A stretch of 45,054 nucleotides of DNA from a phage. Shown in pieces: positions 1,723-24,864 of this stretch. Every line of letters begins with the position of its first letter. Position 1 is the stretch's first letter. The position numbers were made by a program, and so were the translations under genes. The notes beneath the pieces are model-generated. The model saw only the letters and a program-made list of their open reading frames with translations. It did not search any database and was not told the origin of the DNA. The stretch lies in sequence record PZ445537.1; one strand, written 5' to 3'.

Positions 1723-3669
1723 ATGCAGGCCAGCAATAACAGCGAGGCCGACATTTTTATCTATGACGAAATCGGGTACTGGGGCGTAACGGCGAAACAG
1801 TTCGTCAATGATCTCCGGGCACTTGGGGACGTCACCCACATCAACCTTTATATCAACTCGCCAGGTGGTGATGTCTTCGACGGTATTGCTATTTATAACG
1901 CGCTGAAGCACCACGGCGCGGCGATTACCGTGCATATCGACGGTCTCGCGGCCTCCATGGCCTCGGTGATTGCGATGGTAGGCAATCCGGTCATCATGCC
2001 TGAAAACACGATGATGATGATCCATAAGCCCTGGGGGTTTGCTGGTGGTGACGCGAGCGATATGCGCGACTATGCGGATCTTCTCGACAAGGTTGAATCC
2101 GTTCTTATCCCTGCTTATGCGCAGAAAACCGGAAAATCCACCGAAGAAATTGCGGCAATGCTGGAGGACGAAACCTGGATGAACGGCAGCGAGTGCCTTG
2201 AACTGGGTTTTGCCGACCAGGTGACACCATCCCTTCAGGCTATGGCCTGTATTCATTCAAAACGTATTGAGGAATTTGAAAAAATGCCAAAAAGCATTCG
2301 CAACATGATCACCCCGCCGCGCAACACTACCCAGCGTGACCCGGTTATTACCCAGCCTCAGGCACCGCAGGCAAAAACAGACCCGGCACCGGATGAAAAT
2401 GTGATCCGCGCGCAGGTGTTGGCTGAGCAGAAAGCCCGTGTTAACGCTATCGGCGATCTCTTTGCCATGTTCGGCAATAAGCACATGGAACTGCAGAATC
2501 AGTGTGTGGCCGACCCTGATTGTTCCGTCGATAAGGCGAAAGATTTGCTGCTGGCAGAACTCGGTAAAACGGCCACGCCGTCCAATAAAACCACCCAGCC
2601 GCATATTCATGCGGGCAACGGTAACTTCGTCGCGGATGGTATTCGCCAGGCACTGATGGCGCGTGCCGGGTTCGAAGGTCAGGAGCGGGATAACGTTTAT
2701 AACGGTATGACGCTGCGCGAGTATGCGCGTATGGCCCTGACTGAAAAAGGTATCGGCGTGGCCAGCTACAACCCGATGCAGATGGTTGGTCTGGCGCTGA
2801 CCCACAGCACCTCTGACTTTGGCAACATTCTGCTTGATGTTGCGAACAAAGCGCTGATTCAGGGCTGGGACGAGGCGCAGGAAACCTTCGAGCAGTGGAC
2901 CAAAAAAGGCCAGCTGTCGGACTTCAAAACGGCGCATCGTGTCGGTATGGGTGGTTTCCCTTCTCTGCGACAGGTTCGCGAAGGGGCTGAGTACAAGTAC
3001 ATCACTACCAGTGACAAAGGCGAAACCATCGCGCTTGCCACGTATGGTGAAATCTTCTCAGTAACCCGCCAGGCGATCATCAACGACGATCTGAACCAGC
3101 TTACCGACGTACCGATGAAGATGGGGCGCGCGGCGAAAGCAACGATTGGCGATCTGGTTTACGCCATTCTGACCAAAAACCCGAAACTCTCAGACGGAAA
3201 GGCGCTGTTCCATGCCGATCACAAGAACCTGAGCTCGGGCGCAATTTCTGTGGCCAGCCTGGACGAATCGCGCAAGCTGATGCGTCTGCAGAAGGAGGGG
3301 GAGCGAACCCTGAATATCCGTCCGGCCTACATGCTGGTGCCCGTCGCCCTGGAAACTCTGGCAAATCAGACCATCAAGTCGGCCAGTGTTAAAGGTGCAG
3401 ACATCAATGCCGGGATCGTTAACCCTATCCAGAACTTTGCAGAAGTCATTGCCGAACCGCGCCTGGATGAAGCTGATGCGAAAGCCTGGTATCTGGCCGC
3501 CGCGAAGGGCACCGACACCATCGAGGTCGCTTATCTCAACGGCGTCGACACGCCATACATCGATCAGCAGGAAGGCTTCACCACTGATGGTATCGCCACG
3601 AAAGTGCGTATTGATGCAGGTGTGGCGCCGCTGGACTATCGCGGCATGACCAAATCCTCTGGTCAGTAA
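1723..3669 (+). CDS. prohead protease (ClpP/S14-like) fused to major capsid protein
   Basis: First ATG after the portal stop within a longer in-frame ORF from 1375. N-terminal part has ClpP-type serine protease motifs (SPGGDV, GLAASMAS, MIHKPWG); C-terminal ~330 aa is capsid-like. One continuous frame with no internal stop, followed by a strong terminator. Confidence 0.8.
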   Translation: MQASNNSEADIFIYDEIGYWGVTAKQFVNDLRALGDVTHINLYINSPGGDVFDGIAIYNALKHHGAAITVHIDGLAASMASVIAMVGNPVIMPENTMMMIHKPWGFAGGDASDMRDYADLLDKVESVLIPAYAQKTGKSTEEIAAMLEDETWMNGSECLELGFADQVTPSLQAMACIHSKRIEEFEKMPKSIRNMITPPRNTTQRDPVITQPQAPQAKTDPAPDENVIRAQVLAEQKARVNAIGDLFAMFGNKHMELQNQCVADPDCSVDKAKDLLLAELGKTATPSNKTTQPHIHAGNGNFVADGIRQALMARAGFEGQERDNVYNGMTLREYARMALTEKGIGVASYNPMQMVGLALTHSTSDFGNILLDVANKALIQGWDEAQETFEQWTKKGQLSDFKTAHRVGMGGFPSLRQVREGAEYKYITTSDKGETIALATYGEIFSVTRQAIINDDLNQLTDVPMKMGRAAKATIGDLVYAILTKNPKLSDGKALFHADHKNLSSGAISVASLDESRKLMRLQKEGERTLNIRPAYMLVPVALETLANQTIKSASVKGADINAGIVNPIQNFAEVIAEPRLDEADAKAWYLAAAKGTDTIEVAYLNGVDTPYIDQQEGFTTDGIATKVRIDAGVAPLDYRGMTKSSGQ

Positions 3670-16000: not shown

Positions 16001-16618
16001 GCAACGGCGCGCTCGCTGCTGAGCCTGCAGACGGACGTCAACGGCAACAAGGCATCCATCAACAGCCTGAACCAGACGTTCTCCGATTACCAGCAGGCTA
16101 TGGCCACGCAAGTAAACAGCATCACGGCGACGGTGAACGGGCATACCTCTGCCATCACAACTAACGCTCAGGCGATAGCTAACGTAAACGGCGACCTCAG
16201 CGCGATGTACAACATCAAGGTTGGTGTCTCCAGCAACGGGCAGTATTACGCCGCGGGAATGGGTATCGGAGTGGAGAATACGCCATCCGGCATGCAGTCG
16301 CAGGTTATCTTCCTGGCTGACCGCTTCGCCGTCACCACGGCAGCCGGAAACAGCGTGGCTCTGCCGTTCGTGATCCAGAACGGGCAGACATTCATTCGGG
16401 CCAGCTTCATTCAGGACGGCACCATTGAGAACGCCAAAATCGGCAACTATATCCAGTCGAATAACTATGTGGCTGGTTCTTCCGGCTGGAAGCTTGATAA
16501 GGGAGGGACGTTCGAAATTAACGGCGTGGCCGGGGGCGGGAGGATGCTGATATCCAGCACTCTCATTCGTATCTACGACAGCAACAACGTGCTGCGCGTC
16601 AGAATGGGGTTATGGTAA
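13058..16618 (+). CDS. J: tip attachment / host specificity protein gpJ
   Basis: 1186 aa from ATG 13058 (track ORF from 12959 would span the moron terminator). N-terminal two-thirds collinear with lambda gpJ (GGTEPRFTCN, WALYSIAQYCD, ITAVQHDP); C-terminal ~400 aa divergent and coiled-coil-rich. Confidence 0.9.
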   Translation: MQLLHGETIIQGAKGGGGSAHTPVEQPDDLLSVAKLKMLIAVSEGEIQGDLTAQNIFLNDTPLANDSGDYNFSGVKWEFRKGTQDQTYIAGMPQVDNELAVGTTVTTTAPWTRQFTNLSLDAIRIKLSLPVQYLYKDNGDMVGTVTEYAIDLSTDGGAWKTVVNGKFDGKTTTEYQRDHRIDLPKSTSGWSVRVRRITADASGSNSKLVNAFKVFSYAEVIDSKLRYPLTALLYVEVDSSQFNGSAPKVTCKIKGKLIKVPDNYDPTTRTYSGSWSGGFKMAWSNNPAWIFYDLVLDEIYGMGTRVDASMVDKWALYSIAQYCDEMVSDGAGGTEPRFTCNVFIQSQEDAWQVLNDLAAVFRGITFWGNDQIYVQADVPQDDVDWVYNVSNVIDGLFTYAGGSYKNRYSSCLVSWSDPQNHYSDTVEGVYDSALVERYDVRQTSLTAIGCTSQSEAHRRGRWVLLSNAKDGTVSFGVGLDGYIPLPAEIIGVADPFRSGKENGGRISAVNGRQITLDREVDYAAKDRLVVNLPDGKAQTRTISAVSADKKTVTVATAFSQVPVAGAVWAIDSDNLAIQYFRVTSIAANDDSTGGFTITAVQHDPNKYRYIDDGVRVESPPITVTPISVLSAPENIVVTESDHVSQGLTVASLDVSWDKVEGAIRYVAQWRKDNGDWINVPVTSAQGFSVQGIYSGSYDVRVRALNAQDTSSPWGYGETTYLSGKTGKPGTPLNFLATEDVVWHIDLTWKFPDGSGDTAYTEIQRATTADYANPELLVLVPYPAADYQHGPMPAGVRQWYRARLIDRIGNAGDWTDWIMGTSSIDVSEITNDILEDMKESETFKDLIENAVDSNEKIAGMANDIKQANDELEQQAKDIAKNAQDVGKVQTSVNELSSTVGNVSSSLSQLEQTVATADTALGQRIDNISVSMDGMTGGVKNSAIAIIQNGLAQVAARKTLSASVAGNSANLDRIDEVIVNDREATARSLLSLQTDVNGNKASINSLNQTFSDYQQAMATQVNSITATVNGHTSAITTNAQAIANVNGDLSAMYNIKVGVSSNGQYYAAGMGIGVENTPSGMQSQVIFLADRFAVTTAAGNSVALPFVIQNGQTFIRASFIQDGTIENAKIGNYIQSNNYVAGSSGWKLDKGGTFEINGVAGGGRMLISSTLIRIYDSNNVLRVRMGLW

Positions 16619-16914
16619 TGCCACAGGGTTTGCAATGTTGGGATAGTGCAGGGCGGGTTGCAGTGGATTTAAGCGATTACGCGGTCCGTTACATGGGCAG
16701 CGCAACTGTTTCGCTTGCTTCAGGAGAGTCGTCAAAAAATGTCGCCTTTTCTGGCGCAACGCAGGACGGGACGTTTGTCACCATCGTTTCAACTGGCGTG
16801 ACTGTAAACGAGTATTTTTGCCGCGCTTATAACGGCGGCTTTACTCTCTACTATCTCCCCACGGGTGGAAGTGCCGCAATCACTCTCAATGTTGAGGTTT
16901 ATAACTTTCAATGA
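16612..16914 (+). CDS. hypothetical protein, translationally coupled to J
   Basis: 100-aa ORF whose ATG overlaps the J stop (ATGGTAA); no recognisable motif. Confidence 0.45.
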   Translation: MVMPQGLQCWDSAGRVAVDLSDYAVRYMGSATVSLASGESSKNVAFSGATQDGTFVTIVSTGVTVNEYFCRAYNGGFTLYYLPTGGSAAITLNVEVYNFQ

Positions 16915-17552
16915 GCGGATTCGAAGTTTACAACAGCGACGGAAAACTGCTGGTGGATTCACAAAACAGATCGACCATGTTTTATGATCAACGCGCGCTG
17001 GGTGCCGTAACCAATAAAGGCTATTACCGTGTTGATAGCCCGTTTGGTGATGGCAGTACACTTGGCACCACTCCTCAGGCATTCTGGAATGACGGGCGCT
17101 TAAGGTGGCTGCAGCTGGGTACGAACAAATACGGTTTTCCGGGTGCTGATATGCTGGAAGATAATGCGGGTAGCATGATCCGAACTGCGCGAAATATTGG
17201 CATCCAGAGCGGCTATCTCGATGTGTTTGATAGTGCCGGAAACCTTATCTGGAGTGCGGCCTCAGCGTCTAAGATGCCGAGAGTATTCGGGTTCTTTGAT
17301 GTGCCAGCGAACTATGACCTGCAGAACAATACGTTCTCAGTAAGTCTCAGTTTCAACCCCTGGATTCTGGTAAATAACTGCCCAGGTAATCTCAGCGATG
17401 ATGGCACGGTTGTAGGGTATTCAGGTGTAGTGCTCAAATGGACTGGCTCGCAGCTGCAGGGCAGATATATATCTAAAAATCAGCGCAACTGGAGCCAGAC
17501 ATTTCAGGGTAGGGGATTACGAATCCCCATTGCTCAGTTTGTCGGTATTTGA
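16911..17552 (+). CDS. hypothetical protein, coupled to upstream ORF
   Basis: 213-aa ORF starting at an ATGA overlap (16911-16914); no recognisable motif; possible tail-tip accessory by position. Confidence 0.5.
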   Translation: MSGFEVYNSDGKLLVDSQNRSTMFYDQRALGAVTNKGYYRVDSPFGDGSTLGTTPQAFWNDGRLRWLQLGTNKYGFPGADMLEDNAGSMIRTARNIGIQSGYLDVFDSAGNLIWSAASASKMPRVFGFFDVPANYDLQNNTFSVSLSFNPWILVNNCPGNLSDDGTVVGYSGVVLKWTGSQLQGRYISKNQRNWSQTFQGRGLRIPIAQFVGI

Positions 17553-17879
17553 CTCAGGGGGAACGCGAGGATACTGCGTGGCAATCATGTTTTGTCTCAC
17601 GCCTTTCGCTGCGTTGAAGCGATAAACAACATCCAGTTTATCGGTTTTTTTATAGCAAATATTACTGAGCCGCTTATTTACATGGCGGCTAAATATTCCA
17701 TTGCTGCTGTCAGAAATAACCGTCATTTCTCGCGTGGCGCAGTCAATATTAACGTGAATATCACCGCCCAATGATAAACGGGCAGCGTCAACCGGATAAT
17801 CCATTCTGAATGCGTTGTCTGTGTGTTTACTGGAACAGCCAGCCAGCAGCAAAAATATTGCAGCAAATAATCGTTTCAT
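17517..17879 (-). CDS. lipoprotein (reverse-strand moron)
   Basis: 120 aa; signal peptide with lipobox (MKRLFAAIFLLLAGCSS); RBS AGGAA 8 nt upstream; opposite strand to the tail operon, 3' end converges on the previous gene by 36 nt. Confidence 0.6.
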   Translation of the reverse strand: MKRLFAAIFLLLAGCSSKHTDNAFRMDYPVDAARLSLGGDIHVNIDCATREMTVISDSSNGIFSRHVNKRLSNICYKKTDKLDVVYRFNAAKGVRQNMIATQYPRVPPESNTDKLSNGDS

Positions 17880-17949
17880 TTCTACATTCCTGTAAATGCG
17901 GGAATATCCATTTTATTAGAGTTTAAAAAATAGTCAGATTGATATGAGC

Positions 17950-17984
17950 GATCAATTTTACATGATTGATCGTTTCAAACGATC
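17950..17984. promoter_or_regulatory. compound palindrome in divergent intergenic region
   Basis: GATCAAT-N8-ATTGATC (17950-17971) overlapping GATCGTTT-C-AAACGATC (17968-17984), between the reverse lipoprotein start (17879) and the tail fibre start (18006); three GATC sites. Confidence 0.4.
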
Positions 17985-18005
17985 GTTATTATCGTGAGGT
18001 AGTTC

Positions 18006-19292
18006 ATGCTTTATAACACTGGCACTATCGCTATTAACGGAAATACCGCAACCGGCACTGGCACAAACTGGACGGCACCGGCCAGCCAGGTTCGCGCTGG
18101 ACAGACGATTATCGTCATGTCTAACCCGGTCCAGATGTTCCAGATTTCATCCGTGAACAGCGCCACATCGATGACGGTTACGCCAGCTGCTTCCCCGGCG
18201 CTGAGCGGCCAGAAGTACGGCATTCTGGTATCAGACAATATCTCGGTCGATGGTCTGGCGCAGGCGATGTCTCAGCTCATCAAAGAGTATGACGAGAATA
18301 TCGGTGCGTGGGAGACCTTCGCTACCACATCAGCAAATCAGAGCATTACCGTGACCATCAACGGCACCGCCGTAACCATCCCTGGCATCGGGAAACTGGC
18401 GCAGAAAGGGAGCAACGGTGCGCTTGCAATCGCTGACGGCGGGACCGGGGCAACGAAGGCAGAAGACGCTCGCACAAACCTCGGTTTAGGAAGTAGTGCG
18501 TTGAAGAATTTGCAAAGCACAACCGAGGACAAAACGTCTGGGGCTGTTTTGCAGGTTGGAGCCTTCGGATTAGGTGCGGAGGCTCCAACGATCCCTGCTA
18601 ATGATGCGAATCAGATTGTTGGCTATAACGGTTTTGTTTCCGGTGCAGGGGCTCCTGGAACGAACTGGGTAAACGTGTACGGTCCCATGCTCGTTATGAG
18701 GAGAATCAGCGCGGTTGCTCAGGTCCAGGTAAACTCTGTTGGTGGATTGGCATCACGCTACGGTCTGGTTACGGATATGACCGTTAACAATGGCGGTGCA
18801 TGGTGTGTTCACTGGCATGACAGAAACACAACGGTGGACTCAAGCGGGTTCATAAAACGGGCTTCGCCTATCGTTAAGTTGTTTTTTGATGGAAGCTACG
18901 AAACAAATGATGAATCTGAGGGGTGCACAGTACGCCGTATCGAAACAGGCCAATATCTTATAGAAGGATGTCATGGCCTGAATGCTGAGGCTATTTGGGG
19001 CGGGGTTGATGGCGGTTTTGAGATACCCTCAGACCGTAATAAACAGCCGCTGATATGGCTGGATTATGAGGTAAATGCTGACGGATCGGTGCTGGTAAAA
19101 ACCTATCACCGCACACACCCGCAAGCGCCAGCGTTCGCCAGGAACGAGCTGCAGGGCATCAACGATGGCGACCCGGTCGACATTCCCCGCGATCAGTTTG
19201 TGTCCGTGCGCGTCGAAATGCCTGGCGATTCTCTGTACAACCAGAAACTCAGAGCCGTAGAGCTGATCCTTGCTGCTGATGAAGGTGAATAA
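18006..19292 (+). CDS. side tail fibre protein (constant N-terminus plus currently expressed distal cassette A)
   Basis: 428 aa; tail-fibre motif GGTGATKAEDARTNLGLG at aa ~142-159; the constant/variable junction coincides with crossover site S1; C-terminal ~130 aa nearly identical to inverted cassette D. Confidence 0.85.
   Translation: MLYNTGTIAINGNTATGTGTNWTAPASQVRAGQTIIVMSNPVQMFQISSVNSATSMTVTPAASPALSGQKYGILVSDNISVDGLAQAMSQLIKEYDENIGAWETFATTSANQSITVTINGTAVTIPGIGKLAQKGSNGALAIADGGTGATKAEDARTNLGLGSSALKNLQSTTEDKTSGAVLQVGAFGLGAEAPTIPANDANQIVGYNGFVSGAGAPGTNWVNVYGPMLVMRRISAVAQVQVNSVGGLASRYGLVTDMTVNNGGAWCVHWHDRNTTVDSSGFIKRASPIVKLFFDGSYETNDESEGCTVRRIETGQYLIEGCHGLNAEAIWGGVDGGFEIPSDRNKQPLIWLDYEVNADGSVLVKTYHRTHPQAPAFARNELQGINDGDPVDIPRDQFVSVRVEMPGDSLYNQKLRAVELILAADEGE
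18469..18494 (+). other. invertase crossover site S1 (hix/gix-like)
   Basis: CTCGCACAAACC-TC-GGTTTAGGAAGT: 12+2+12 architecture with AAACC/GGTTT flanking the core as in gix as recalled; lies inside the fibre gene and encodes ARTNLGLGS. Confidence 0.75.
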
Positions 19293-19309
19293 AGGTCGGT
19301 TTGGGAGAC
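19284..19309 (+). other. invertase crossover site S4
   Basis: GGTGAATAAAGG-TC-GGTTTGGGAGAC; shares the right half-site with S1; spans the stop of cassette A and the start of cassette B. Confidence 0.65.
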
Positions 19310-20131
19310 AGCGCCACAGCCAACTTCGGAAGCCTCGAGATCGGAGCCAAAAAACCTTCTTCAGCAAGCTTTGTTGATTTCCATTTTCTTGGCACCAACG
19401 ACTATGACGCGCGCATCCTGTGTGGTGGTAATTCTAATGGTGCCATGGGGAAAGGGGACTTCACTTTTTACGCGGGGAAATACGTTTTTATCGGCGATAG
19501 CTTTGAGTTTCGCAACCCCATTACCTGTCAAAATAGCATCAGCGCATCTGCAAAAATAGCGACCACTGCTGATATGGAATGCAAAACTAAAATCGCTGTT
19601 TTGGCACCGGCTGACAATCAAAATGCCCATGTATGGTTCTATGGCACAGGTGGGGCATCCAGGGGGGTTATTTATTCCGGGCAAACAGGAATTATTCAGA
19701 TCCGTCCCGACAATAATGATAACGGCGGCTCCAACGGATACTCTTTTGCATTTGGGGCCGATGGTAAGTTTACCTGCGTCACGATGAACCAGACCTCAGA
19801 TGAGCGAGTAAAATTCGATAAAGAGCCCGTCAGTAACGCTCTGGAGAAGATTTGTTCCCTGACGGGTTATACGTTCGGCATTCAGCTCACAGAATCTGAG
19901 TCGGTACGTAGCGCAGGCATCATCGCACAGGAACTGGAGCAGGTTCTGCCGATCGCTGTGAGTTCTGGCGGCACCGGAACAACACCTGCAGGAGAGGAAA
20001 TTAACGATCTCAAAACCGTGGACTACAGCGCAATGAGCGCCCTCTACGTTGAGGCAATCAAGGAATTAACCAACCGGTTGAAAAGTGTTGAGAGCGAACT
20101 TACTGCAATACGTGACCGCTCAAACGCTTAG
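19301..20131 (+). CDS. silent tail fibre distal cassette B with C-terminal intramolecular chaperone (S74-like) domain
   Basis: 276 aa counted from TTG inside S4; no RBS or ATG; frame opens right at the crossover site; C-terminus has the self-cleaving chaperone signature (SDERVKFD...GIIAQELEQVLPIAV...VDYSAMSALYVEAIKEL). Confidence 0.7.
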   Translation: MGDSATANFGSLEIGAKKPSSASFVDFHFLGTNDYDARILCGGNSNGAMGKGDFTFYAGKYVFIGDSFEFRNPITCQNSISASAKIATTADMECKTKIAVLAPADNQNAHVWFYGTGGASRGVIYSGQTGIIQIRPDNNDNGGSNGYSFAFGADGKFTCVTMNQTSDERVKFDKEPVSNALEKICSLTGYTFGIQLTESESVRSAGIIAQELEQVLPIAVSSGGTGTTPAGEEINDLKTVDYSAMSALYVEAIKELTNRLKSVESELTAIRDRSNA

Positions 20132-20781
20132 TTTCTTGTCTTATCTTCTAAAGCCCCGACGCGGATTGCCAGGGCTTTTATCGCGGCCAGCGCATCGAGC
20201 AACATGGGGGTCTGGTCGAGATGCAGCAGGCCGCCAATATCTTTGACGTATTCAGGGTCGATAGTTTCAATCTGCTGAGATATCACCCCGCGCCGTGGGG
20301 TCTGCGTTTCATCATCCTTAAAAGTGAAGTGTTTGAACTCCATCCGTGAAATGTTGCCCAGCGCCTCTTCTGGATCGAGGTCGTCACCAATATTTTTCAT
20401 AATTCTGTCTGAAACTGCAGACGTCATTATCTCCTTCCATGGGCTCCATGTATCAGTGTTGTAACCCCTGAAAAAAAACCTTCCCGCATCAGTTTTGTTG
20501 GCATACGGCAAGCAGAACTGCGTCAAGGCTACATCAGGAATACGAACATAATTTTGAACATACCCATACCAGCTGGTGATAGGTCCTGAAGTTGATTTCG
20601 CCATATCTAACAGCAAACGATATGTACCAGGTTCAGTCAGGGCATTGAAATTTGTCCCGTCAGGAGCAACTGCCATATCTGTTTTAAAGGCTCTGGCATC
20701 ACCAGTTGGCAACCCGAATGCCCCCACCTGCATGACGTTCCCGGCTGCGCCGCCTGCATCCAGCGTGGCGCTACTTCCCAA
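20128..20781 (-). CDS. silent tail fibre distal cassette C (inverted) with chaperone-like C-terminus
   Basis: 217 aa on the minus strand beginning inside site S2 (GLGSSATLDAGGAAGNVMQVGAFGL); C-terminus resembles an S74-type chaperone domain (SDRIMKNI...GVISQQIE); stop codon overlaps cassette B's stop tail to tail. Confidence 0.7.
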   Translation of the reverse strand: MGSSATLDAGGAAGNVMQVGAFGLPTGDARAFKTDMAVAPDGTNFNALTEPGTYRLLLDMAKSTSGPITSWYGYVQNYVRIPDVALTQFCLPYANKTDAGRFFFRGYNTDTWSPWKEIMTSAVSDRIMKNIGDDLDPEEALGNISRMEFKHFTFKDDETQTPRRGVISQQIETIDPEYVKDIGGLLHLDQTPMLLDALAAIKALAIRVGALEDKTRN

Positions 20782-20798
20782 ACCGACCTTTATTCACC
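20773..20798 (-). other. invertase crossover site S2 (inverted relative to S1)
   Basis: Minus-strand sequence GGTGAATAAAGG-TC-GGTTTGGGAAGT; 23 of 26 nt identical to S4. Confidence 0.7.
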
Positions 20799-21527
20799 TT
20801 CATCCGTAGTCATTGCCAGTTCTGTGGCCCTGAGTTTTTGGTTGTACAAAGAATCGGCAGGCATCTCGACACGGACGGACAAAAACTGGTCATGGGGGAT
20901 ATCGACCGGATCGCCATTGTTGATACCCAGCAGTTCGTTCCTGGCGAACGCTGGCGCGTCAGGATACGTGCGGTGAAAGGTTTTCACCAGCACCGAGCCG
21001 TCAGCGTTAACCTCATAATCCAGCCAGATCAGCGGCTGCTTGTTACGGTCTGTAGGAATGTCAAAACCGCCATCGATTCCGCCCCAGGCTGCGTCAGAGT
21101 TCAACCCTTCACACCCTTCGATAAGATACTGCCCTACGTCCAGACGGATGACCTTTATGCCTTCGGATTCATCATTGGTTTGGTATGCACCATCCGAAAA
21201 TACTTTCACCACAGGCGATGCTGCTTTCAGTGTGCCATCGCTGGCCCTCGTGGTATTGCCCGTGGTGTAAGCCTCCTGATATGACCAGGACGTGCCACCG
21301 TAATACGAAAACCACGTCCGCCTTAGAATGTAGGCCTGATGAATACGGGTTGGTCGGCTGCCCCGATTGACGACTATAGACGTAATACCGGTATTTGCAG
21401 TTAACCCGAGCTGGGTCTGTCCGTCATTTTGATGGGAGGAGAAACAGGTCGGTGTAAATGCGTCCATAGCGTCCAACAGTGGGCCGTCTCCGTTGATAGT
21501 TCCAAGCCCAAATGCGCCCACTTGCAT
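20790..21527 (-). CDS. silent tail fibre distal cassette D (inverted)
   Basis: 245 aa from ATG 21527; the same frame stays open upstream to site S3 (…LGSSATKDVGTTAGNIMQVGAFGL); C-terminal ~130 aa (NDESEG…DEGE) nearly identical to cassette A, forming a long imperfect inverted repeat. Confidence 0.75.
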   Translation of the reverse strand: MQVGAFGLGTINGDGPLLDAMDAFTPTCFSSHQNDGQTQLGLTANTGITSIVVNRGSRPTRIHQAYILRRTWFSYYGGTSWSYQEAYTTGNTTRASDGTLKAASPVVKVFSDGAYQTNDESEGIKVIRLDVGQYLIEGCEGLNSDAAWGGIDGGFDIPTDRNKQPLIWLDYEVNADGSVLVKTFHRTYPDAPAFARNELLGINNGDPVDIPHDQFLSVRVEMPADSLYNQKLRATELAMTTDEGE

Positions 21528-21566
21528 GATGTTCCCGGCAGTCGTTCCGACGTCCTTTGTCGCGCT

Positions 21567-21592
21567 ACTTCCTAAACCGACGTTTTATAGAT
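21567..21592 (-). other. invertase crossover site S3 (inverted relative to S1)
   Basis: Minus-strand sequence ATCTATAAAACG-TC-GGTTTAGGAAGT; right half plus next 6 nt (GGTTTAGGAAGTAG.GCG) identical to S1; preceded by an in-frame TAA. Confidence 0.75.
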
Positions 21593-21657
21593 TGCCCTGG
21601 GGCAGCCTGGCCGATAACGTCACCTGATTTTTTCTTACAAAAAGGTGACTAAAAAAC

Positions 21658-22212
21658 ATGCAATATGGGTATGCAAGGGTATCAACTTTTGACCAAAATC
21701 TTGAATTACAGTTAGAGGCGCTAAATCGGTCAGAATGTGACCAGATATTTGAGGATAAAATATCCGGAGCGAAGTCAAAACGTCCTGGCCTGGATAAGAT
21801 GATGAAGTTATTGCGGCCAGGTGACACCGTCATCGTCTGGAAGCTAGACCGGCTCGGTCGATCACTCATACACCTCGTCGATTTACTGCGCTATTTCCGG
21901 GCTAATAATATTGAATTTGTCTCAATCACTGAGGGAATAAGGATCAGCACGTCAATCGGCAGATTCGCATACACAATGTTGAGTGCTGCGGCTGAGATGG
22001 AAAGAGAAAATATTATTGAAAGAACAAGGGCAGGTTTAGCCGTGGCAAGGGCAAAAGGGAGAATAGGTGGGAGGCGTCCAAAGTTAACACCAGAACAATG
22101 GGCGCAGGCTGGGAGATTAATATCAAACGGCGTGGATAGAAAACAGGTGGCAATAATTTATGATGTGGCTGTATGCACGCTTTATAAAAAATTTCCGGTG
22201 GGGCAGGCTTAA
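21658..22212 (+). CDS. serine recombinase, DNA invertase (Hin/Gin/Cin/Pin family)
   Basis: 184 aa; N-terminal catalytic motif YARVSTFDQ; RPGL…GDT-VVWKLDRLGRS block matches Hin as recalled; C-terminal HTH; sits just outside the invertible segment as gin/cin/pin do. Confidence 0.9.
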   Translation: MQYGYARVSTFDQNLELQLEALNRSECDQIFEDKISGAKSKRPGLDKMMKLLRPGDTVIVWKLDRLGRSLIHLVDLLRYFRANNIEFVSITEGIRISTSIGRFAYTMLSAAAEMERENIIERTRAGLAVARAKGRIGGRRPKLTPEQWAQAGRLISNGVDRKQVAIIYDVAVCTLYKKFPVGQA

Positions 22213-22254
22213 ATGATTAAAGGGCAGCTTCTGGATAGGCTGCCCGTCAAAGTA

Positions 22255-22518
22255 TTATCCATTTTGCCGGACAGTTGGGAATTCAGACGTCAGCCACATG
22301 TCGGATTCATCAAACATTTCCTCCAGCATACGGTTCAGCTTTTCCCGATCACTTTTGCTGGCATCACTATTTAAGCCGTTCGCCTGCATCGGCTTTACCT
22401 TCACTTCGGCATCAGGAAAAATCTGGTGCACCCGCTTCGTTAGTTCAGCCAGGATGATCTCTCTGGCCCCTTGGAGCCCTTCAACATTTCGCTTGTCATA
22501 AACCAGTTCAACAAACAT
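22255..22518 (-). CDS. dinI: DinI-like DNA-damage-inducible protein
   Basis: 87 aa from the ATG with RBS GAGAGGA (track ORF extends further upstream); acidic C-terminus and overall pattern fit the DinI family; promoter carries an SOS box. Confidence 0.7.
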   Translation of the reverse strand: MFVELVYDKRNVEGLQGAREIILAELTKRVHQIFPDAEVKVKPMQANGLNSDASKSDREKLNRMLEEMFDESDMWLTSEFPTVRQNG

Positions 22519-22576
22519 ACCGATCCTCTCATAAGTGAAAAATGCCTGTGCTTGATCTGATTTCATAAAAATACTA

Positions 22577-22592
22577 CTGTATATGTATACAG
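22577..22592. promoter_or_regulatory. LexA (SOS) box within divergent promoter
   Basis: CTGTATATGTATACAG (CTGT-N8-ACAG) embedded in the minus-strand promoter TTGACT-17 nt-TATTTT for the dinI-like gene; also directly upstream of the plus-strand ORF at 22618. Confidence 0.7.
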
Positions 22593-22617
22593 TCAATAAG
22601 CGAGTGAGGGTGCGTTC

Positions 22618-22857
22618 ATGCCTCGTCAACCGGATATTCGTGCTGCTTTTATTGCGGCCATACAGCAAAACCCGAAGGGCTATCTCTGCCTGCATACAGA
22701 CAGATTCATCACTGAACTGCAGGAGAGGCACTGGCATTTCAGCCAGGCGGATGCAAATTCATGGATCGAACGATACCAGCCAGACTTCGCCGATAAGACG
22801 ACAAACGGAAGTGAGAACCGATACTGGATCCTGCGTAACATGGGGAGGGTTTTCTAA
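22618..22857 (+). CDS. hypothetical protein
   Basis: 79-aa ORF with RBS GAGTGAGGG; divergent from the dinI-like gene across the SOS box. Confidence 0.45.
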   Translation: MPRQPDIRAAFIAAIQQNPKGYLCLHTDRFITELQERHWHFSQADANSWIERYQPDFADKTTNGSENRYWILRNMGRVF

Positions 22858-23282: not shown

Positions 23283-23328
23283 TGGTCGGCACGAGAGGAT
23301 TTGAACCTCCGACCCCCGACACCCCATG
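23283..23328 (-). other. attP core: 3' ~46 nt of a tRNA gene (tRNA-Pro-like)
   Basis: Minus strand reads CATGGGGTGTCGGGGGTCGGAGGTTCAAATCCTCTCGTGCCGACCA: anticodon-arm remnant, T-arm and acceptor 3' strand with CCA, but no 5' half. Identity to tRNA-Pro is from memory. Confidence 0.6.
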
Positions 23329-23384
23329 TCACTGCGTTAAAGCCGCTGCAACCCTTGTAAATACTGGTGCTACGGCATGTTTGA

Positions 23385-23464: not shown

Positions 23465-24652
23465 TCACCCGGCTTTAAAGACAATTTCAGCATGAGGAAC
23501 TTCTACCCATTCAACATGATTCTGGGTATAAATTTTTGTCGATTTTGCATCACTATGGGCCATCCTTGCCTGCGGATCGATACCTTGTCTTTCGAAAATA
23601 TGAGCCGCCAGCGCTCTAATCTCGTGGAAAGTTGGCCTTTCTTTGATAGGTAATTCTGCCGCTACACCTATCCGGTCCCGCAGCTCTGAAAATGCTCTGC
23701 TCAAATAATCAGGGGCCACCTGTGTTGGGTGGTTAACTTCCTTGCTTATAGGATTGCTTCTCTTTTCCAGAAGCCGGTGAACAACATAAGGACTGGCCAC
23801 ATTGTCTCTGCTGTTGTCGATGATCTCTTTCAGGGCCCTGCCGATCGGAATGGCAACGTGTGAGGCCTCTTTGTGCTGCACTTTTTGCCGATGAATGTAA
23901 AGCGTTCCGAATATTCCAGCCTCTTCCTGATCTAACCATACACATCCGCAAACCCCTTCTTTAGGTTCCTTGATCGAGTACCGGATCCGGGAAACTTCCA
24001 GGCGCGCTTGCGTAGTTTGTATTGCAAGGTCCATTGCAGTCTTCAGCCAAGGTTCAGCAGCTGCATGTATGGCCAGGAACTGCTCCAAAGTAAGTCGCCG
24101 GCGGACCTTTTTATCGACACGCCGCATTTTTTTCCGTGTTGCAGGATTATCCATCATTAGCGATTCATCCACAGCATAAGAGAATAGCTTTTTCAGGAAG
24201 CTAACTTTTCGGTTCTGAACATTGGCCGACGATTCAGAATGGTAATTTCGTATGTAGGCATTTACGTGCTCAAGCTCAATGTCACACGCGGGTATGTTAT
24301 TAAAAAATTCTTTAACCCTGATGGCATCATTATTCCAATCGTCAAGTGTGCTTTTAGACGGCTGCTCATCTTTGATCGCTCTCTCCATAATGCGATCAAC
24401 ATGTTCAGAAAACGGGTGGGCTTCACCATTAAGCCCTCCCGATTCCCGAATTAATGAATCTATCGATGGTGTGTTTTCAGGGCGCATCCTCAGGTTATAT
24501 TCTCGGGCGATGGCGATAGCCATTACTCGATCCGAACCGAGAGTTTTCTTTTTCCCAGTTATAAGCGTGAACTTATACACGCCACGATCTTTATCAAAAA
24601 AAAGATAATCAGGAAGGTGGCGGTATTCTTTTTTTCGTGGCCTTGCTGCCAT
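23465..24652 (-). CDS. int: tyrosine integrase (lambda Int family)
   Basis: 395 aa from ATG 24652 (RBS GAGGG; track start 24658 is TTG); C-terminal catalytic region HEIRALAAH…RMAHSDAKSTKIYT fits the R-H-R-Y pattern; adjacent to the attP core. Confidence 0.95.
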   Translation of the reverse strand: MAARPRKKEYRHLPDYLFFDKDRGVYKFTLITGKKKTLGSDRVMAIAIAREYNLRMRPENTPSIDSLIRESGGLNGEAHPFSEHVDRIMERAIKDEQPSKSTLDDWNNDAIRVKEFFNNIPACDIELEHVNAYIRNYHSESSANVQNRKVSFLKKLFSYAVDESLMMDNPATRKKMRRVDKKVRRRLTLEQFLAIHAAAEPWLKTAMDLAIQTTQARLEVSRIRYSIKEPKEGVCGCVWLDQEEAGIFGTLYIHRQKVQHKEASHVAIPIGRALKEIIDNSRDNVASPYVVHRLLEKRSNPISKEVNHPTQVAPDYLSRAFSELRDRIGVAAELPIKERPTFHEIRALAAHIFERQGIDPQARMAHSDAKSTKIYTQNHVEWVEVPHAEIVFKAG

Positions 24653-24654
24653 GG

Positions 24655-24864
24655 TCAACCCTCAATTATTAACTGACGTACCGCCTGATTAACAATTGAG
24701 TCAACTCCCCACTTTTCGGTTTCATAGACAAAAACTGAACCATCTACAATCCTTCCCATGAGTAATCCGTTTTCGACCCAACGTTTAATTGTACGGTTGT
24801 CAGGAATGGAGTCTTTAGTAAACTCGCGCTTACTCCAGAGACTCGCTTTCATTAGCTTTGCCAT
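24655..24864 (-). CDS. xis: excisionase-like protein
   Basis: 69 aa from ATG 24864 (RBS GAAGGA); TIKRWVENG…GSVFVYETE resembles the Xis DNA-binding fold; stop abuts the int start. Confidence 0.65.
   Translation of the reverse strand: MAKLMKASLWSKREFTKDSIPDNRTIKRWVENGLLMGRIVDGSVFVYETEKWGVDSIVNQAVRQLIIEG

Follow-up and report, generated by a model that had tools for sequence, protein, structure and literature searches.

Does Escherichia phage Eeyore carry a single side tail fibre, or can its fibre stem be joined in turn to any of several tips? The question is raised by positions 18006 to 22212 of the 45,054-nucleotide stretch analysed here (PZ445537.1; hereafter the window), where a fibre gene is followed by three further fibre-like reading frames, two of them on the opposite strand, and by a gene for a serine DNA invertase. 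The window is 100% identical to the GenBank record of Escherichia phage Eeyore (PP925821.1; 45,057 bp; river water, USA), which is rotated relative to it so that record position 1 corresponds to window position 19445, inside the segment called cassette B below. The region sits within the lambda/HK97-like tail module of this temperate coliphage. A first-pass annotation of the window had proposed a multi-site tail-fibre inversion system, and each element of that proposal (recombinase, sites, cassettes and topology) held up in the analyses described below, with natural isomers as further support beyond what the first-pass annotation could draw on. We conclude that the locus very probably functions as a host-range switch that changes the side tail fibre by multiple inversions ('shufflon-like'). 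Its features, in window coordinates and with minus-strand sites written as reverse complements, are the following:

18006-18482, plus strand: Sc, the constant N-terminal part of the side tail fibre, codons 1-159, HK97 stf-like, within the open reading frame (ORF) 18006-19292
18469-18494, plus strand: site S1, CTCGCACAAACC TC GGTTTAGGAAGT, inside the expressed fibre gene
18483-19292, plus strand: cassette A, the expressed C-terminus, Phage_tail_C_2 (PF25670, E=1.9e-60; phrog_1591)
19284-19309, plus strand: site S4, GGTGAATAAAGG TC GGTTTGGGAGAC
19298-20131, plus strand: cassette B, a silent C-terminus, Peptidase_S74 (PF13884, E=5.6e-11), frame open from 19289
20128-20784, minus strand: cassette C, a silent C-terminus, Peptidase_S74 (PF13884, E=3.5e-8), frame open from 20793
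20773-20798, minus strand: site S2, GGTGAATAAAGG TC GGTTTGGGAAGT, its left half carrying the stop codon of D
20790-21578, minus strand: cassette D, a silent C-terminus, Phage_tail_C_2 (PF25670, E=1e-57), frame open from 21584
21567-21592, minus strand: site S3, ATCTATAAAACG TC GGTTTAGGAAGT, adjoining the invertase gene
21658-22212, plus strand: Gin/Cin-family serine DNA invertase, 184 amino acids (aa), with Resolvase (PF00239, E=3.4e-45) and HTH_7 (PF02796, E=8.4e-13) domains
21658-21767, plus strand: candidate intragenic recombinational enhancer, the first ~110 nt of the invertase gene, proposed from third-position conservation

Crossover sites, cassettes and invertase

The window contains exactly four copies of the core pattern AAASSTCGGTTTRGGA, at 18476 and 19291 on the plus strand and at 20776 and 21570 on the minus strand (expected by chance in dinucleotide-preserving shuffles: 0.00), and no fifth site was found in the window when three mismatches were allowed. 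Every site consists of 12 bp, a central TC that is identical in all four, and a further 12 bp; this alignment and the pattern search both return the 26-bp coordinates and the orientations (order ++--, two sites per orientation) given by the first-pass annotation. That annotation was also right in describing near-identical right halves (GGTTTRGGARRY) and a (V/L)-G-L-G reading in one codon phase at every site. Its description of the left core as AAAC(C/G/G) fails for S4 and S2, which read AAAGG and not AAAC(G). Beyond AAA the left half-sites have little in common, and they are symmetric with the right halves at only 4-6 of 12 positions. Comparison with known sites, which had been proposed as a check, found that the core AAAnn/GGTTT of the four sites resembles the gix and cix sites found in Mu and P1 DNA. 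Since the crossover lies within codon 159, the constant part comprises residues 1-159, and since the core TC supplies bases 2-3 of that codon, all fused products read ...ARTN-L-GLG.... The 16-nt core pattern of S3 begins 88 nt before the ATG of the invertase gene.

The nucleotide homology of Eeyore to about 25 HK97-like phages, including that of Sc to the stf genes of HK97, mEpX2, HK106 and others, stops exactly at the site (window 18492-18496, inside S1). In HK97 itself (NC_002167.1, locus L152, 2970-2995) the stf gene contains an orphan site, CTCGCACAAACC TT GGTTTGGGAGAA, which falls at the same ARTNLGLG junction as S1 of Eeyore; HK97 has no invertase.

The assignment of the four cassettes to fibre C-termini rests on profile matches to PF25670 in A and D and to PF13884 in B and C, together with matches to the PHROG families. 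Sc aligns to phrog_1980 positions 4-209 and also to phrog_1591 from position 2; the whole Sc-A protein matches phrog_1591, as does D (positions 199-467), and B and C match phrog_1980 at positions 209-435 and 276-429, respectively. Because B, C and D align to the C-terminal part of the fibre families, they are C-terminal halves and not whole genes. The prospect that the cassettes would prove unrelated to tail fibres, raised at the outset as a way in which the proposal could fail, has thus been set aside, all four being fibre domains. In an exact look-up the Sc-A protein was not on record. The S74 Ser and Lys lie five residues apart in B (SDERVK) and in C (SDRIMK), both of which are predicted to carry a self-cleaving S74 intramolecular chaperone domain; the invertible region holds no separate assembly-chaperone gene. 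A and D are 54% identical overall and ~80% identical over their last ~155 aa, in agreement with the suggestion that they share a C-terminal end, and an inverted repeat of 457 nt (78% identity) spans the ends of A and D together with S4 and S2. B and C have only their first ~20 residues and the S74 fold in common.

The silent frames, apparently promoterless, run uninterrupted over 218-277 codons and, as first described, open at the sites, namely inside the left half-sites at 19289 (B), 20793 (C) and 21584 (D, following the TAA at 21587-21585). The stops of A (TAA, 19290-19292) and D are built into the left halves of S4 and S2 (GGT GAA TAA AGG), and B and C converge with a 4-nt overlap. The constant 159 residues can be fused in frame to any of the cassettes, a claim supported by the phase and frame analysis and by the intact fusions found elsewhere (see below). 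The statement that silent cassettes have no ribosome-binding site or ATG does not hold strictly for B and C and otherwise stands: the G-L-G motif of S4 and S2 has TTG as its Leu codon, preceded 5 nt upstream by AAAGG (19291-19303 and 20779-20791). This AAAGG directly follows the stop of the preceding cassette, and gene callers begin B at the TTG (276 aa). With B following A on the same strand, translational coupling in the present isomer might yield a free B fragment that lacks the stem.

The invertase gene begins 66 bp past S3, where the first-pass annotation had placed a recombinase of the Hin/Gin family, and profile searches bear this out. The closest solved relative of its product is Gin (3UJ3, 4M6F; E ~1e-64, residues 2-182), with 107 of 182 residues identical (59%; Gin sequence taken from the solved-structure alignment); identity to P1 Cin is 60%. 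The catalytic Ser9 (YARVST), whose mutation would have spoken for an inactive enzyme, is intact and aligned to Gin S9, and R7 and the DRLGRS arginines R65 and R68 are kept. Residues 151, 154 and 155 of Hin (Q, R and L), which contact Fis, and the basic helix-B residues 47, 48 and 51 are reported to be specific to Fis/enhancer-dependent invertases. The former have counterparts in Q150, R153 and L154 of the Eeyore protein. In helix B, K47 and K50 are present and position 46, which is basic in Hin, Gin and Cin, is Asp.

Third-codon-position conservation, computed over 75 non-redundant invertase homologues, is 0.76 in codons 1-33 and 0.59 in codons 67-180 (codons 1-33 versus the rest, permutation p<1e-4). 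The first ~110 nt of the gene are nearly invariant, synonymous positions included, among homologues (L007-L151) that are only 65% identical in protein. Loose Fis-like 15-mers of the form G-N13-C occur at gene positions 22-36, 71-85 and 94-108, of which the latter two were also scored at the same positions of Mu gin. The first two candidates are spaced 49 bp apart; the Fis sites of hin are spaced 48 bp apart. The first candidate lies ~107 bp from the centre of S3, and in hin the proximal Fis site lies ~100 bp from hixL. A scan of the gene with a Fis consensus gave several loose matches and no decisive pair at 48-bp spacing. The conservation pattern suggests that a cis element overlaps the start of the gene, most likely a recombinational enhancer as in gin, cin and hin.

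Natural isomers exchanged at the site core

An exact-sequence look-up of the invertase led to a prophage on contig AAROGK010000053.1 of assembly GCA_012072505.1 (locus L179). It encodes the identical invertase protein and is 99.0-99.6% identical to Eeyore over D, the invertase and the DinI/UmuD side; its B and C are covered by an alignment of 1,846 nt, at 96.4%, which takes in the divergent A-tail/D-tail repeat as well. The order in this prophage is D(+), B(+), C(-), invertase. Its sites are hybrids, one with the D-end flank on the left and the start of B on the right, the other with the invertase-side flank on the left and the start of C on the right, and these flanks match those of Eeyore exactly up to the shared TCGGTTT core. 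We deduce the isomer (A, D, B/C') for this prophage, against A, B/C', D' in Eeyore, so that the two are two inversions apart; its Sc junction lies off the contig, and its state is therefore deduced and not seen. A look-up of the neighbouring lipoprotein for the partner contig of GCA_012072505.1 returned other prophages only. The same D-B junction is present in a Logan contig from run SRR8095523 (L191) of which both ends lie at site cores, and a second contig from the run (L188) matches window 16429-18165 at 100% identity.

Junctions of Sc with each of the silent cassettes were also found. The 35-nt sequences predicted for them occur verbatim in IMG/VR contigs (14 contigs for Sc-D, two for Sc-C and six for Sc-B), and intact fusion ORFs exist for Sc-D (L155; 92.9% aa identity over 1-421), Sc-C (L168; 97.6% over 1-377) and Sc-B (L175; 91.5% over 22-434). 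Two pairs of IMG/VR contigs (L094/L095 and L136/L111) are 99.7-99.9% identical and differ by inverted segments. In another locus (L114) a block of A-tail, site and B, 84.6% identical to that of Eeyore, adjoins the invertase in mirror orientation, as it would if the Eeyore segment were inverted in full.

The position of the exchange could be followed in five near-identical complete genomes of Escherichia coli (CX15, CX07, CX21, CX05 and CX04; loci L003, L004, L176, L177 and L178), which carry a three-site homologue beside yciI/tonB. One tip is joined to Sc in CX15 and CX04 and a B-like tip in CX07, CX05 and CX21, with the exchange at the core. The cores in the latter three are Sc[TT]X and inv[TC]Z, and those of the exchanged sites are TT/TT in CX04 and TC/TC in CX15. 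By our own derivation, one inversion with 2-nt staggered cuts in a parent with unlike cores, followed by replication that separates the heteroduplex cores, should yield two segregants, and CX04 and CX15 are exactly these. The pattern matches the 'localized conversion' reported for P1 Cin, as cited in the EC958 study. At the level of sequence, the CX cores support strand exchange at the central dinucleotide in this family of sites.

We enumerated the isomers accessible to Eeyore breadth-first, allowing only inversions between oppositely oriented sites and modelling the segments as A (right half to left half), B/C' (right half to right half) and D. Twelve isomers are reachable, of which four express A, four D, two B and two C. 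From the present state C and D are each one inversion away and B is two, because B and C form a convergent pair, so that B is reached only via two inversions.

In the mechanism that we propose, the invertase would bind the four 26-bp sites and pair two of opposite orientation; both strands would be cut at the central TC with a 2-nt stagger, and the half-sites would rotate and be religated, with the intervening DNA flipped. Since the sites share one codon phase and the left half of S1 stays on Sc, inversions at S1 put the start of a different cassette after codon 159. The predicted fibres would be Sc-A of 428 aa (present state), Sc-B of 436 aa, Sc-C of 377 aa and Sc-D of 421 aa, and inversions that do not involve S1 would reshuffle the silent cassettes. 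Cassettes of the A/D type, with their stop in the next left half, bring their own 3' site, which makes an array with more than two sites possible. A population of lysogens would release virions with differing fibre tips, which may hedge over receptors or hosts. The isomers of the 99%-identical prophage and the homologous systems lead us to infer that the Eeyore invertase catalyses inversion; dependence on Fis and an enhancer, an effect on host range and the receptor specificities are presumed.

Several points weigh against a working switch. The left half-sites match the right halves poorly, so that some pairs of sites may recombine rarely, and B, which needs two successive inversions, is possibly a rare state. 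The deposited Eeyore genome has a single arrangement, D46 replaces one of three conserved basic residues of helix B, the evidence for the enhancer consists of synonymous-site conservation and loose Fis-like motifs, and the receptor specificities of the four tips are presumptive.

The alternative that fares best is a frozen relic, in which sites and cassettes were inherited, the invertase is unexpressed or inactive and only Sc-A is made. The single deposited arrangement and the D46 substitution in the helix-B basic patch would suit it, and some relatives look decayed (a fixed 419-aa fibre, an inverted fragment of 72-80 aa, no invertase). We nevertheless regard a relic as improbable, since the reading frame of the invertase is unbroken and every catalytic residue is kept, the four sites have identical cores and near-identical right halves, the three silent frames are open over 218-277 codons, and a 99%-identical prophage with the identical invertase protein is in a different isomeric state.

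It could also be held that B, C and D are genes in their own right, each translated from its own start, and that the repeats are a conserved coding motif only. PP925821.1 is annotated in this way: its coding sequences CDS0001-0004 (window 19445-20131, 20128-20733, 20790-21527 and 21529-21627) present the silent cassettes as separate genes with internal ATG starts ('tail fiber protein', 'long tail fiber protein distal subunit') and a 33-codon 'hypothetical protein' across S3, and apart from a 'DNA invertase' the inversion system is unannotated. The TTG after AAAGG in S4 and S2, used by gene callers, points the same way, as does the ARTNLGLG motif with its site-like sequence in the invertase-less HK97 stf. 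Against this, the three products match only the C-terminal halves of fibre families and lack the virion-attachment part, two of the three face away from the tail operon, homologues 91-98% identical occur as single ORFs fused to Sc, an invertase gene adjoins, and natural isomers differ exactly at the motif, which leaves very little room for independent genes.

General homologous recombination (RecA or phage Red-type) might instead have used the 457-nt inverted repeat that spans the ends of A and D and S4/S2. At 78% identity this repeat is a poor substrate for homologous recombination. The explanation is scarcely tenable given that hybrid sites in L179 join partners sharing only the ~20-nt site (for example, invertase-side flank and C start), that the flanks there switch within TCGGTTT, that the CX core dinucleotides segregate as expected of a 2-nt staggered cut, and that deletion of gin is reported to have abolished switching in the related Enterobacter prophage FRφ (PMC13418256).

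Related loci and known inversion systems

Searching with the invertase yielded 65 genome loci and 80 viral loci. Sites were counted in the 52 loci that have a homologue of Sc and a homologue of the invertase in the same layout. Two sites were present in 33 of them, three in 15 and four in the other 4 (L013, L074, L114 and L142). The orientation patterns among the four-site loci are ++--, +--- and +++-, the three predicted by the enumeration. In most loci with a detectable invertase-proximal site this site lies 86-89 nt before the ATG. Phage mEpX1 (JQ182727.1, L153; sites at 3418 and 4913) has a two-site version with the same layout and stem, consisting of the Sc site, whose right half deviates (GGTTTAGACAAA), and a second site 88 nt ahead of a 'Pin-like' invertase that shares 49% identity with that of Eeyore. 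Loci L180-L184, which share an identical lipoprotein with Eeyore (see below), have a fixed 419-aa fibre of Sc and Phage_tail_C_2 with no invertase nearby, followed on the opposite strand by a Phage_tail_C_2 fragment of 72-80 aa; their make-up suggests the decayed remains of an invertible system.

Gin-driven fibre switches with several cassettes have been published before for lambda-like phages and are common among the relatives of Eeyore. The closest published case is FRφ, a prophage of Enterobacter sp. BIDMC93, which is described as having a three-isoform tail-fibre 'shufflon' with gin downstream (Nat Microbiol 2026, PMC13418256; bioRxiv 10.1101/2025.07.22.666180). Long reads are reported to show all isoforms in prophage and virion DNA, and deletion of gin to lock the state (PMC13418256); the isoforms differed in infectivity, a single one infecting via FhuA (PMC13418256), and related loci with up to six paralogs were reported alongside (PMC13418256). 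Like Eeyore, FRφ is lambda-like and temperate; its fibre joins a constant N-terminus to alternative C-termini, and a gin-type recombinase is encoded directly downstream. A locus of the FRφ type among those retrieved here (L136) has three Phage_tail_C_2 cassettes and gin, followed by the FRφ signature of a flagellin gene and a TnpB-like gene; its Sc is 85% identical to that of Eeyore at the aa level, and it has the same CCTC/GGTC/CGTC site types, with one site at -88. The two systems differ in the number of C-termini (three in FRφ, four in Eeyore) and in their kinds, since the cassettes of L136 are all Phage_tail_C_2 whereas Eeyore has two of these and two S74 cassettes, the latter as a convergent pair. 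The invertases are ~67% identical. Eeyore further differs from FRφ in its host, E. coli, and in having DinI/UmuD-like genes downstream and no fliC-tldR. The 26-bp sites are not defined in the main text of the FRφ paper (PMC13418256).

The classical multi-site case, as cited by later papers, is the Min system of p15B (Sandmeier, Iida, Arber 1990-1992). It shares with Eeyore a Din-family serine invertase, more than two sites in both orientations and in-frame fibre 3' segments behind a constant 5' part. In p15B, a P1-type plasmid prophage with myovirus fibres, there are six mix sites and 240 isomers, and the segments include separate tail-fibre-assembly (tfa) genes. Eeyore, in contrast, has four sites and 12 isomers in a lambdoid siphovirus side fibre, and no tfa genes.

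The two-site systems Mu G/Gin, P1 C/Cin, e14 P/Pin and EC958 Phi1/Phi2/Phi4 have a homologous invertase (59-60% identity to Gin and Cin) and 26-bp sites built around AAACC-NN-GGTTT, one of which directly precedes the invertase gene, as in Eeyore, but they have two sites and two states where Eeyore has four sites. According to the annotation of Mu, a dedicated chaperone gene comes after every variable part within the segment, whereas the Eeyore cassettes are single ORFs. For EC958, 26-bp crossover sites and a mixed orientation of ~50% by PacBio were reported. Three inverted repeats that give four genomic variants and three alternative C-termini were described in a P2-like prophage of E. coli (Goldberg et al. 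2014, PMC4272514), with all variants coexisting in clonal culture (PMC4272514). That prophage differs from Eeyore in being a P2-like myovirus and in having three sites. The shufflon of R64/IncI plasmids is analogous in function and not homologous, as its recombinase Rci is a tyrosine recombinase acting on sfx sites and its product a conjugative pilus adhesin. With Eeyore it has in common a constant N-terminus (PilV), several invertible C-terminal segments and a role in recipient or host specificity (Komano 1999, as cited by later papers).

Genome setting and meaning of the locus

Upstream of the region lies the gene of the J-type tip protein (FNIII-A_GpJ, Phage_Tail_Tip; ends 16618), followed by two small HK022-type ORFs, a lipoprotein gene on the reverse strand and the fibre gene from 18006; downstream, the invertible region is followed by the invertase, DinI- and UmuD-like genes and a lambda-type integrase (23465-24658). 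The lipoprotein gene (17517-17879, minus strand; 120 aa predicted, MKRLFAAIFLLLAGCSS...) opposes the tail operon directly before the fibre gene. Its product belongs to phrog_25729 (function unknown), has no Pfam match and is found identically in 24 or more contigs; in phage mEpX1 the equivalent position is occupied by a Cor exclusion gene. Next to the integrase gene, the reverse complement of 23283-23330 (minus-strand sense) reads ...GGGGTGTCGGGGGTCGGAGGTTCAAATCCTCTCGTGCCGACCA, which resembles the 3' ~48 nt of a tRNA-Pro gene and is presumably the attP core; ARAGORN found no complete tRNA at 23283-23330. The L179 prophage abuts genes with Pfam domains resembling those of E. coli yejM, yejL, yejK and rplY, which would fit proL as the integration site.

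Scans of the window for tRNAs and Rfam families gave zero matches, and promoter and terminator counts in 17400-22800 did not exceed those of shuffled sequences and are uninformative on which cassettes are transcribed. No complete E. coli genome contained the whole Eeyore region (best coverage 24%). A literature search found no paper that names phage Eeyore, nor is it named in the Phage DisCo paper.

A switch of this kind has already been proven experimentally in FRφ, and its principle has been known since Mu, P1 and p15B. With its four sites and four cassettes, the Eeyore locus belongs to a widespread family of Gin-type fibre switches, and it opens no new question. Modestly new are the combination of four cassettes of two domain types on one stem and the convergent B/C pair with B accessible only after two inversions. 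Relative to the published account, in the parts available to us, the explicit 26-bp sites with their TC core and a rule for the growth of arrays, according to which A/D-type cassettes end in the left half of the next site including the stop, are also modestly new.

This rule is one of three observations behind a further idea, that the crossover site is a portable docking joint and the array an integron-like collector of cassettes. The invertase might then also capture tips from co-resident prophages by intermolecular site recombination. A/D-type cassettes carry their own 3' half-site with a stop, an orphan ARTNLGLG site persists in the stf of invertase-less phages such as HK97, and homology between many phages breaks exactly at the site. 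We consider the idea speculative and rather unlikely; if it were true, arrays would expand stepwise from two cassettes to three and then four (reportedly six), and tips would pass from one phage lineage to another.

For Eeyore itself, the deposited genome is one of twelve possible forms, and three of the genes annotated as 'tail fiber' are silent alternative tips of one gene. Work on the host range or receptors of Eeyore or related prophages should expect mixed populations of virions and would need locked, invertase-deleted isolates for the assignment of receptors.

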